DNA of 64,000 bases, from assembly GCF_032062105.1 (NCBI RefSeq), contig NW_026923980.1, forward strand, positions 62,001-126,000, written 5' to 3'. This DNA comes from Saccostrea cucullata (lineage: Eukaryota). Every line of letters starts with the position of its first letter. The first letter of the stretch is position 1. The notes under the pieces are model-generated. The model searched no databases. It was not told the origin of the DNA and saw nothing but the letters and a program-made list of their open reading frames with translations. This document shows positions 23,834 to 57,523 of the stretch, piece by piece. The translations under genes and the position numbers were made by a program.

Positions 23834-26800
23834 TCACAACTGAACAACAGTCCTTATGCTGCAATATAGAGAAAAATAACATTTGAAAAATTGAACTAAG
23901 ATTTATCAATGCAATTATTTGGTTAAGAGCTCAGTTATTTGCTTAAGTGGGTATATGACTGTAAATTAAGGCAAAAAAAAATTAATTTCTTGGTTCTCAG
24001 GCCCTCCCTCATCTCTTCCAAGGGTGCCTCATTGACCCTTTTTATTGCTAAATCAATTAAATATAAACACCAAATCACCTCCCTCATCATTTTTTGAGGT
24101 TTTGTACAATGTAAAAAAGCTGCCTCATCATGTTTCTGGGGCAATAAAAAAGGAAAAAAAATGCCTCCCTCCCTCATCATATTTCTTGAAAAAAGGCCTG
24201 AGACCAAGTAATTAACTTTGCATGGCCTAAAGTGAATATTTTATTTTAAATTATCACACTTTCATATTACTGGCTTTTTCAAAAACGATAAATTTAAAAT
24301 AGTTGGTACTTAAATTCAATTTGTATTAACACCAAAGAATTATGACTGTGATGATGAAATGTAAAATTACTGGTTATTCAAGATATGTCTCTTCAGTTTA
24401 TTCTAATCAATATTCATCTACATATATTTCATTTGTATGTTAGAAAAATACAATATACAGTAATTTTTTTTATTATCTTAGTTACTTTTTTTTAATGTTT
24501 AAAAGCAGAAAAGCTTACCTCTTGCCAGCATGCATTAAATCAAATGCTTCGTTAATCTTGTCCAGGCTGAAATTGTGTGACACAAATTCATCCACCATTA
24601 CCTTCTTGTTCATATAACCCTCCACCAGCATAGGAACACTGTCTCTGCTCTTCCAGCCTATCAATAGGAGGCCAACTTTTTTCAATACCATCTTCTTTCA
24701 GTATCAAATTTTCTACATACCCTTATATCAATTTACCCTAGCAAAACGGGGGGGGGGGGGGGGGGGGGGGATACCAGACTTCAATGAACATTTTCAATAG
24801 TAAATGTTATGTTTGGTAAAAAGAGGAGGGGGAGCTCCCCCTTGTTCCTACATGCCTGTAATTAAATTATGGCTCAGTATACTCCAACATGTTAAAGAGG
24901 AAAAAAAGGAAAACAATGGATGTGATTAAACATATCTGAAGTTTGATGCAAGTCCTTTACCTCCAAAAGCTGTTCCCTTCCAGACTCGGCCAGTGACCAG
25001 CTGGAACGGGCGGGTGGAGATTTCCTGGCCGGCAGCTGCCACCCCGATAATCGTAGACACGCCCCAGCCTTTGTGACAGGACTCCAGGGCCGCTCTCTGT
25101 AACACACAGATCAATCAATAGAGAGCAAAGTTACTATAAAGATATAAATCATAGACACACCCCAGCCTCTGTGACAGGACTCCAGGGCCGCTCTCTGTAA
25201 CAGATAAACAAATCAACAAAAAGGAAAAAAACTTGACCATAAAGTTATCTTAACCCTTTGTGTGCTGACTTGTTTTACGCGCGCTGTAACCTCAGGACTG
25301 AGTTGTTTTGTAATATCAACAAAATTATCACAATGGTGTACTAAAATGCAAATATCTAAAATTGTTGACAACCAATTTGCTTGAAATTTGGCAAATATAT
25401 AGCAAATGTTGTGTTTTTTAATCTATACTATTTTTTTTTTAAATCTAATATTTTATGTTGCCATGGAAACCAAATTTTCAAAAAATTTATTTTAAAATGA
25501 CTTTTTAGCATTTTAACAATATTTTTCAGAGAAAATATTGCACTTTGATGAAAAAAAATAAATCAATCGCTTTAAAAATTCAATTTTAGTTTAATATTAT
25601 GCAAAAAAAAATTTAATTTAAACAATAACTCAATGATAAAGTCAATGTTATATATACCGTTATGTTGTGAAAAGTCATTGTACTGTATACTTATCCGAGT
25701 AAGGGATATATTCATGTAGGTTTAAGTGAATTCTGATTCAAGTTGATGGATTTTTTTCAGATTTTAACTAAAAAGAGTATAAATTGAAGATTCAATTAGC
25801 CTGCAAATATAAAACCAGTGATTATTTTAAGAAATATCGGCAATCACATAAGAAAGTATGATCCTCAAAGAATATGCAGTTTTCGAGGTTGGGAAATCTT
25901 GGAGCAAATTGGCACAACAATGAACTAATTGCTGTTACTAGTATTCATTTTCAAATTGAAGCAGTCAATATGTTAAATAAATTTAAAAAAAATAAAATAA
26001 CATTTACACTAAGTTATAGAGGTCTTATTTTCTAATGACTGGTATCTAACAGCCCTAAATATACTCTAGTAATTCTCAAATCTTTTTTTTTATTTTGTTT
26101 TTATTGAAGAAAATGCATATCTCCGTGTTATTTGTAAAGTTTACATATTCATCAACTTTCCTCCCACAGTACTTCTCACTCTGTAAGAAATGTGGCATTT
26201 ATTTTAGAAGTTTTATTCCTAGCTGGCAACAATAAATGCCAACAGGAAAACTAGAATTTTAAATTTTAGAAATTTAAGCACCTTTAACAGTCATTTATAA
26301 TGTTTTCAAAAATGACTTCGTTCAATGTGGTCACTGGTGAATAACAGTTTTGATTTTTTTCAATTGATTTTAGTTAATGATGGTTGACAGATATGTACCA
26401 TAATATCAATCAATATATTATGAAATACTTTTAAGTTTATGCAAGTCTAATGGTATGGGTCATGGATATAGGCCAAGTAAGCTCAGTCAGTAGAGCATCT
26501 GACCGGTGATGCAGGGGCCCCTTCTTAGATTCACGGTCCAGCCATGCATTTTCTCCTTCCTTGTTACATATTTGATGCTATTGTCCCCTCTGGATTTGCA
26601 AGTGAAAGTCCTGTCAGGGGCTAATAAGAATTTGGGTTGTGTCTTCAAGGATAAAGATAACTTTAAGGAGGGATATGTAATGGTTGTGCTATGGGTATCA
26701 ACCTGGGTTGCTCATTCGGTAGAGCACCTGACTAGTGAAGCAGGGTTCCTGAGTTCTGTTTTATTTTTGCCCCTTTCACCCTCTCCTTGATTGGGCGAAT

Positions 26801-55500: not shown

Positions 55501-57523
55501 TGTCTAGGATTACGTACACAGTGATGTTGTATGTCTAGGATCACGTTTACAATACGGTTGTATGTCTAGGATCACATACCTCTTTATAATCGAAGTACAC
55601 GGTAAAGTTGTATGTCTATGATCATATACCTCTTTATAATCGACGTACACAGTATGACTGTATATATATCTAGGATCACATACACAGTATGACTGTATGT
55701 CTAGGATCACGTGCACAGTATGACTGTGTGTCTAGGATCATAAACCTCTTTATAATCGACGAACACATTGAGGTTGTATGTCTAGGATTACGTACACAGT
55801 GAGGCTGTATGTATAGGATCGCGTACCTCTTTATAATCGACGTATACAGTGAGGTTGTATGTCGTCCCGTCATCATTCTCCACCACTCTGTCTACTCGCT
55901 GTTTCTTGGCGTCATAATCGTAGTACAGCTTGGACTGAATCTGTAAAATTAAGCTGGCTATTAACATTGTTTTCATATTGACTTCCATATTATTGTCTGA
56001 TTGTTTTTCGATGATATACTGGCTATTCTGGTTAAACCAGAGTTAAAGTATTAGGCATCTGAATTCTAAAAAGTCGAGCTGCAAAATAAAACAAAATTGA
56101 AGCAGCACCCAATGATAGTTAAGGGGGCCGACTATAGTTTCCATTGCGCAATATTTCGCGCATCATAATAACATGAAGCGTATTTACTGTTTTAATGCAA
56201 CTTTTTTGCTAAATTATTAAAATTAAACAAAATTAAGAAATCATAGGTACAAATATGTAATTACATTTTGATATAACTGATTTTTTAACGGATTTTGCAA
56301 TTGATAGGTAGGTTGACGTCGTTGCAGTGTGTTTTTGACGTTATGATAATCTGTAGCTATTAAAGAAAGGGGTAATAAAAATATTATTTAAGAAAAAGTA
56401 ATAAACATATGCTCTTGAAATTCAAAACATAGAAATTTGAGAATATCTCCAATTTTTTTATTATGTTTTCATGTGAATCCATTGTGTTCGTCATATTTAG
56501 TAATACTCTATAAAGATAGTAAAATTCGCTAATTTTTAGCATTTTGAGATGCCCCCTCTAGTAGCAAGACGGTAGAATTTTGTGTTTCTTAGATATATTG
56601 TATAATATAGTATTACTCATCAAATATTATAGTTTAAACAAAATGTCTATTGTAGTATTTGTATAATTTGCTTTAAAGTGCTAAAAATTGGCATTTTCCT
56701 ATATAATCCTATAGTAAATGTACCTGTATTTTGAGACGGTCCCTCAAAAATACCTGGACGGTAGATTTCCCCCAAACTTTGCATGTACACTGAAGTTAAT
56801 GTAAGCTATAGATGGTATAAAGATGAAGAGTTTCGCTATTGTAGTTTTTACATAATAAAACTATAGTCGGCCCCCTTAATTAGAACTTTCAAAGAGCAAT
56901 AAAAAGGCATATCATGAGAAAATGTCGAATATAAGAAAATGGTGGTTTTGAGGAAGACTACCCTGGTAATGGTTCCCTTAAAGTTTCTTGCGCGGATTTA
57001 TAGGAATCTCGGCTTTGGAGATCTGAAATATTTAAAAGACTTTCTCACAGGCTCTTTTTATTACAGCATATTGTTTCTATCGGATTTTAGTCTACATCTG
57101 TATTAATTATGACAAGGAATCTCTTAAAGTCAATTAATCTAAATCCATACTATCATTATGGAATGCCAGCAATTAACACATGTTTCTTGATCAGTCATAT
57201 TGATGGTATTTGTTCTGTTCACAGTAATTTGTTCACATTGTTCACAATGACCTTGGTCCTTCTGTCACAGTAAACAGTTCAGTATAGTTACTTTTTTTCA
57301 ATTATTGGTATAATGTAATTGGTTCAGCCCTACCTTTAACAGTGATTGGTTTACCCTGTGTACTTACAGTAATTGGTTCAGGCGTTCCAGTCTTGGGGTC
57401 TATTTTTCCTCCAACTTCCAGCAGGTCCGCTGTGAACTGATGATGGACGCAGCAAGGGGTTGGGTTAGCGGCGAGGGTGGTGCCGACCAGGGCCACCAGC
57501 AGGAGGAGGGACTGTCTGACCAT
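52600..57523 (-). CDS. Ependymin-related secreted protein A, 226 aa, 6 exons
   Basis: Exons 57368-57523, 55827-55940, 53928-54009, 53661-53831, 53403-53494, 52600-52665 (681 nt); signal peptide, PCC..QF, YYDY..K, C..PC.P, DCTPI, FFTN..FHIPASC. Confidence 0.88.
52935..53100 (-). mobile_element. Penelope-like element fragment
   Basis: tttgctgacaaggtcattgtat shared with 2834 and 4531. Confidence 0.55.
53115..53402 (-). repeat. About 54-bp tandem repeat derived from the ependymin A exon 5 end plus donor
   Basis: Units gacaagaggcgggaatatgggacacgtgatgaggtaaact copy 53403-53453. Confidence 0.9.
54115..55826 (-). repeat. 1.7 kb minisatellite (50 bp and about 30 bp units) derived from the ependymin A exon 2 end plus donor
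   Basis: Unit gtacctctttatagtcgacgtacacagtgaggttgtatgtctaggatcgc copies exon end acatacaacctcactgtatacgtcgattataaagag|gtacgc. Confidence 0.92.
56123..56875. mobile_element. Kolobok-like non-autonomous transposon, second copy
   Basis: TTAA TSD, perfect TIR gggggccgactatagttt; colinear with 22540-23291. Confidence 0.85.

Follow-up and report, generated by a model that had tools for sequence, protein, structure and literature searches.

Tandem repeats whose unit straddles an exon-intron boundary have been described in amphioxus as mirages, in Adh3 and the globin genes BflGb6 and BflGb9 (PMC3087553), with troponin C and PGBD5 added subsequently (PMC3902484). As characterized in the available sections of these two reports, the boundary-spanning unit lies on the donor or the acceptor side, GT or AG persists in many, not all, copies, normal splicing is unaffected, and the copies inside a cluster undergo concerted evolution; the units measure 10-72 bp in Adh3 and 150-160 bp in the globin genes. 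Human minisatellites with a donor-spanning first unit occur in F7 IVS7 (37 bp), CBS IVS13, IFI 6-16, LMNB2, and PDGF, and the accessible text on them states that scanning selects the donor lying farthest upstream, which is usually the only one used (PMC1557585). For human segmental duplications, variable internal tandem repeats with ~30 bp minisatellites at exon-intron boundaries are reported in the available part of PMC2812944.

The oyster locus described here is densely populated with repeats of this known class and brings in a new animal group, the host being a bivalve mollusc; one of its two affected genes, ADH5, is the same gene as amphioxus Adh3. The oyster units (27-98 bp) fall within the 10-160 bp range of the cases in the accessible amphioxus accounts. 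A boundary-spanning unit is present at all six oyster sites, with only two copies at ADH5 exon 9 and a marginal case at exon 1 of the ependymin-related gene A (EPDR-A). As in amphioxus, the splice dinucleotide is partially retained in the echoes, with GT kept at 9/14 positions tested in the ADH5 exon 3 array and by 14 of the 18 long units tested in EPDR-A exon 2, and AG kept in 1/2 echoes at ADH5 exon 7 (the other reads TG) and 1/1 at exon 9. The human F7/CBS-type repeats share with the oyster the reiteration of a donor into the intron; they differ in forming one donor-side array per gene, whereas the oyster genes have three sites each, on both sides of introns and with mostly exonic units. 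The boundary repeats of human segmental duplications, as far as the available text of PMC2812944 goes, create new introns or alternative transcripts; none were seen at the oyster locus. Intron gain by tandem duplication was considered and rejected because each array occupies only one end of an intron that already exists. Also set aside was a 27-bp intronic minisatellite of abalone, which the accessible text of PMC6905558 does not describe as junction-spanning. The accessible open-access literature yielded no mirage from a mollusc.

The window, meaning the entire 64,000-nucleotide stretch of DNA that was analyzed, contains two ZNFX1-like frames, ADH5, a single-exon GPCR, a KY-like gene, and two ependymin-related genes, A and B (Table 1). 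EPDR-A exon 4 was 100% identical to the NCBI Saccostrea cucullata model and 93% identical to that of S. echinata, and the locus therefore belongs to a rock oyster. The same exon matched PF00811 under the curated cut-off.

Table 1. Positions of the genes and junction-spanning duplications in the window
Feature	Position	Strand	Description
ADH5 (class III alcohol dehydrogenase) gene	23834..34510	-	11 coding exons, 377 aa, open frame, all introns GT-AG; PF08240 on exon 3; RNA joints for exons 4-9
ADH5 exon 3 donor array	31654..32147	-	27-nt unit (20 exon + 7 intron), ~15 units
ADH5 exon 7 acceptor array	30023..30166	-	43-nt unit, 3.2 copies
ADH5 exon 9 acceptor duplication	25047..25242	-	Single 98-nt duplication (50 exon + 48 intron), two copies
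Ependymin-related gene A (EPDR-A)	52600..57523	-	Exons 1-5 agree with NCBI Saccostrea models
EPDR-A exon 6	52600-52665	-	Predicted
EPDR-A exon 1 donor	57312..57378	-	27-nt duplication, ~2.5 poorly matching copies, 13-nt exact match, score 26
EPDR-A exon 2 donor array	54115..55863	-	Mixed 50/31-nt units, ~1.75 kb, most of the 1817-nt intron
EPDR-A exon 5 donor array	53120..53453	-	54-nt unit (51 exon + 3 intron), ~6 units
Ependymin-related gene B (EPDR-B)	58336..63134	+	EPDR-A paralog, internal control

The 3' end of the EPDR-A model was examined further. The predicted fifth intron and sixth exon are absent from paralog B (52666-53402 versus 63013-63134), and a search for spliced full-length EPDR-A orthologs covering exon 6 recovered nothing beyond genomic read-through calls and two NCBI models, both fused. 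Orthologous oyster loci were sought in JGI metagenomes, where 598 pattern matches gave 0 confirmed cases. The predicted exon 5 donor is supported by a good GT site, by poly(A) signals after a downstream exon, and by a read-through call from a more distant oyster in which homology ends at this same residue; the two NCBI models speak against it, as they both continue through the site. The more distant oyster call stops matching after CHGVH and continues VR.., which would be consistent with an older intron 5 donor. The exon 5 array ends distally in a donor-like sequence, possibly the intron's original start in displaced position. Both NCBI Saccostrea models join EPDR-A to the downstream KY-like gene (window 49887-57523, - strand) by entering the first exon 5 echo; the joining sequences differ between the two species, and the fusion is probably a mis-annotation. 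In a related oyster, a read-through call carries ~5 tandem repeats of 13-15 residues directly upstream of the EPDR-A exon 4 homolog, possibly a further junction-adjacent array in the same gene; the equivalent position in the window is a plain 96-nt intron.

Several other features of the window were recorded. A 20-nt unit repeated three times (23735-23795) lies immediately 3' of the ADH5 stop codon, off any splice junction. The exon 1 donor of EPDR-B (58491-58575, + strand) has a borderline gapped echo with a score of 22, ~60 nt inside the intron, which could have arisen by chance or be what is left of an ancient mirage. Upstream of the first ZNFX1-like helicase, a frame at 5244-6380 (+ strand) encodes ~21 heptads with the consensus YRPTSPS, close to the RNA polymerase II CTD heptad YSPTSPS. 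This frame overlaps the long helicase frame (6268-11580) in another reading frame, so that either the assembly is in error here or a frameshift or undetected intron is present. The ZNFX1-like paralog at 15735-19700 is one continuous frame without heptads that ends early in zinc fingers.

A preliminary description of the locus had listed six splice-junction arrays. The six sites and their straddling units are real, but only four are true arrays; ADH5 exon 9 is a single duplication and the marginal EPDR-A exon 1 duplication reads as a decayed trace. These two sites were not reported by TRF at a score of 40, and the other four are TRF arrays. Every unit straddles its junction with a different offset (3-48 intronic nt), and no breakpoint lies at the junction itself. 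Copying from spliced mRNA was rejected, as the tested echo donors of ADH5 exon 3 and EPDR-A exon 2 continue as native intron and not as the next exon. The short microhomologies said to lie at unit joints are visible as shared words; they are no proof of pre-existing microhomology because any tandem duplication is necessarily identical at its joint. Only GGTCA stands apart, with two occurrences inside the native ADH5 exon 3 unit.

The preliminary description had also held that exon-adjacent units match the exon best and that distal units decay, implying polarized growth from the exon. Unit identity did not fall with distance from the exon in the ADH5 exon 3 array (rho -0.09, n = 12, p = 0.77) or in the core of the EPDR-A exon 2 array (rho -0.02, n = 35). 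The full 50-nt unit of exon 2 gave rho -0.49 (n = 19, p = 0.034), yet its best copies lie 360-680 bp inside the intron, and the trend in the EPDR-A exon 5 array was the reverse of the claimed decay. With identity not declining in two of the three long arrays, polarized growth from the exon was rejected as a rule. A perfect exon-adjacent copy was found in ADH5 exon 3 only, and exchange with the exon copy therefore also happens. In each of three arrays, the echo units have in common one base that is missing from the exon copy, in EPDR-A exon 2 (17/17 units), EPDR-A exon 5 (4/4), and ADH5 exon 3 (8/11), which likewise contradicts the polarized model. These bases argue for growth mainly from an intronic copy, and expansion of such a copy would be the simplest account of them. 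Read by codon, the diagnostic differences are synonymous in exons 2 and 3 and would change Phe to Ser in exon 5; where they are synonymous, the exon copy may instead have changed later. The units differ by ~7-14% among themselves and from the exon, and the echo units are nearer to their own consensus than to the exon copy and share diagnostic bases, the pattern of concerted evolution.

Splice-site strength was assessed with a crude matrix trained on the 21 introns of the window itself. Donors scoring at least as high as the median native donor numbered 7 among the echoes of ADH5 exon 3 and 10 among those of EPDR-A exon 2, and the upstream echo acceptor of ADH5 exon 9 at 25194 scored 12.2 versus 11.3 for the native site at 25096. 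The EPDR-A exon 1 and exon 5 echoes are weak, the usable donor being mostly lost. Every tested extension into an exon 2, 3, 7, or 9 echo produced a stop or a frameshift; read-through into the ADH5 exon 3 echo, for example, reaches TAG at the third codon. Reads from three poly(A) RNA runs and one DNA-contig run, of a related lineage with many fixed differences, were placed on 24900-31600. The three RNA runs gave native ADH5 joints between exons 8 and 9 (596 reads), 6 and 7 (465), 7 and 8 (301), 5 and 6 (382), and 4 and 5 (378). In one RNA run, 103 loose ends at exon 4 ran on into native exon 3 with an agreement of 0.98. Thus, in this related lineage, normal splicing was observed at exons 7 and 9 from joints in three runs and at exon 3 from a single row of loose ends. 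Only native joints, and no ADH5 echo joints, appeared among the joint rows listed for the three runs, a listing that stops short of 126 weaker rows, and read depth bounds use of the exon 9 echo acceptor at 0.8-2.2% in steady-state poly(A) RNA of that lineage. NMD could hide rare poison products from RNA reads. An independent DNA contig covers 29901-30266, including the exon 7 array, with 20 mismatches and 15 gap letters (a 15-letter net gap), and another contig of the related lineage lies on the exon 9 echo and differs there in a way that would alter the amino acid in the exon. These contigs suggest that the exon 7 and exon 9 echoes are both present in the related lineage. Word shares of the indexed runs with 52500-57600 were 0.03-0.14, with no run of the same lineage among them, and carry no weight as evidence.

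The association with junctions was quantified within the window over 46 junctions, which include two late-found KY-like exons and three junctions placed 1-2 nt off without effect on the scores. An echo score of at least 26 was reached at 6/46 junctions, compared with 1/1012 mismatched exon/intron pairs and, with the six arrays out of the null, 4.2% of 8715 pseudo-junctions (p = 0.012); at a score of at least 36, the values were 5/46 and 2.0% (p = 0.002). None of the 16 junctions of EPDR-B, the KY-like gene, and the ZNFX1-like gene reached 26, the 8 junctions of EPDR-B included, its exon 1 donor standing at 22. When the arrays were kept in the null, a per-base test gave no junction excess (fold 1.2-1.6, p = 0.2-0.37) because long arrays contribute many positions. 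Counted as events with curated boundaries, 4 of 25 non-coding arrays lay on a junction (0.55 expected, p = 0.002), as did 4 of 13 intronic ones (0.92 expected, p = 0.009, rising to 0.09 when the expectation was doubled for an anchored copy). Curation merged two pieces in EPDR-A intron 2, extended the exon 5 array to its exon copy, and left out arrays with a period below 10 and one coding array; uncurated TRF boundaries gave weaker results (3/26, p = 0.017; intronic 3/14, p = 0.066). If the EPDR-A exon 5 donor is taken as not real, the count is 3/25 (p = 0.011, 40 junctions). Among the strong non-coding arrays (TRF score at least 100, a threshold set post hoc), 4/7 were on junctions versus 0.28 expected, with p = 0.001 even when the expectation was doubled. 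All of these p-values come from a single window flagged for this very feature and so overstate any genome-wide effect. The claim that junction arrays make up most non-TE intronic tandem repeats held by length and failed by count, as they are 4 of the 13 intronic TRF arrays with a period of at least 10; several of the other 9 are apparently inside dispersed repeats. Unit GC was 0.33-0.48 versus 0.32 in array-free intron.

The six duplications are probably mirage minisatellites, that is, tolerated DNA-level tandem duplications in which the native site stays in use and the intronic copies turn over. An ordinary duplication of 27-98 bp, presumably generated by slippage or microhomology-mediated repair, would happen to span an exon-intron boundary. 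It would be tolerated, with one copy keeping exon and splice site intact and the spliceosome staying on it, and native use was observed at the three ADH5 sites in the related lineage. Rare mis-spliced products, which would carry stops, would presumably be degraded. The intronic copies would then expand and homogenize mutually, with occasional exchange with the exon copy; such turnover is suggested by their shared diagnostic bases. Tolerance through survival of the native site, raised as one option in the preliminary description, fits the native-site use in the RNA reads and the event-based junction excess in the window. The excess among strong arrays (4/7) is beyond what plain tolerance predicts. 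The junction excess probably has passive causes, namely GC-richer exon-derived units, purging of purely exonic duplications, and a selection-pinned copy that keeps the repeat recognizable for longer. A mutational process focused on splice junctions, with polymerase pausing, R-loops, or breaks at germ-line co-transcriptional splicing sites raising the duplication rate, would fit both event counts, the 5/46 junctions at an echo score of at least 36, the involvement of donors and acceptors alike in two unrelated genes, and the more numerous tandem repeats near plant and algal intron-exon junctions reported in the accessible part of PMC3887541. We regard it as unlikely, given the loss of the per-base excess with arrays in the null, the drop of the intronic event test under a twofold anchor effect, breakpoints that never fall at the junction, two of three long arrays without a polarized gradient, and the 16 echo-free junctions in the other genes.

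The preliminary description further envisaged banks of poison splice sites. That the echoes are kept by selection as decoys tuning expression through alternative splicing and NMD strikes us as very improbable: no echo joint was seen among the listed rows, depth over the exon 9 echo was ~1-2% of that of the exon, and the EPDR-A exon 1 and 5 echoes have lost good donors. The features that speak for such selection are the many strong echo donors of ADH5 exon 3 and EPDR-A exon 2 with the exon 9 acceptor, the stops or frameshifts in all tested extensions, an exon 5 echo common to S. echinata, and the use of nearby echo donors in human 6-16 and CBS (available text of PMC1557585); young or homogenized copies would be expected to keep intact sites without selection. 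Least credible is that the arrays are assembly artifacts. For 52500-57600, the share of words present did not exceed 14% in any indexed run, and read placement covered a region outside the three long arrays; the fixed differences of the placed runs' lineage would themselves lower word sharing. Unit differences of ~7-14% are unlike duplicated assembly copies, independent contigs span the exon 7 array and lie on the exon 9 echo, and the S. echinata protein model continues into an exon 5 echo and shows the identical replacement of Phe by Ser.

Under tolerated duplication and turnover, the reading that we prefer, these arrays extend mirages to bivalves. They may also mislead annotation: the two NCBI Saccostrea models run on into the exon 5 echo and treat the ependymin gene and its neighbor as one. 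A genome-wide junction bias, which a single selected window cannot show, would, if it held, tie splicing to the origins of duplications. It is doubtful that the germ line of oysters, and likewise that of lancelets and perhaps of further marine invertebrates, favors splice junctions when short tandem duplications arise; if it does, mirages would be enriched several-fold across the genome, would recur in one housekeeping gene (Adh3/ADH5) in both a mollusc and a chordate, and would form a lasting reservoir of new introns and splice sites. The oyster locus is a natural test of splice-site choice, above all at the ignored, equally strong upstream acceptor of ADH5 exon 9.
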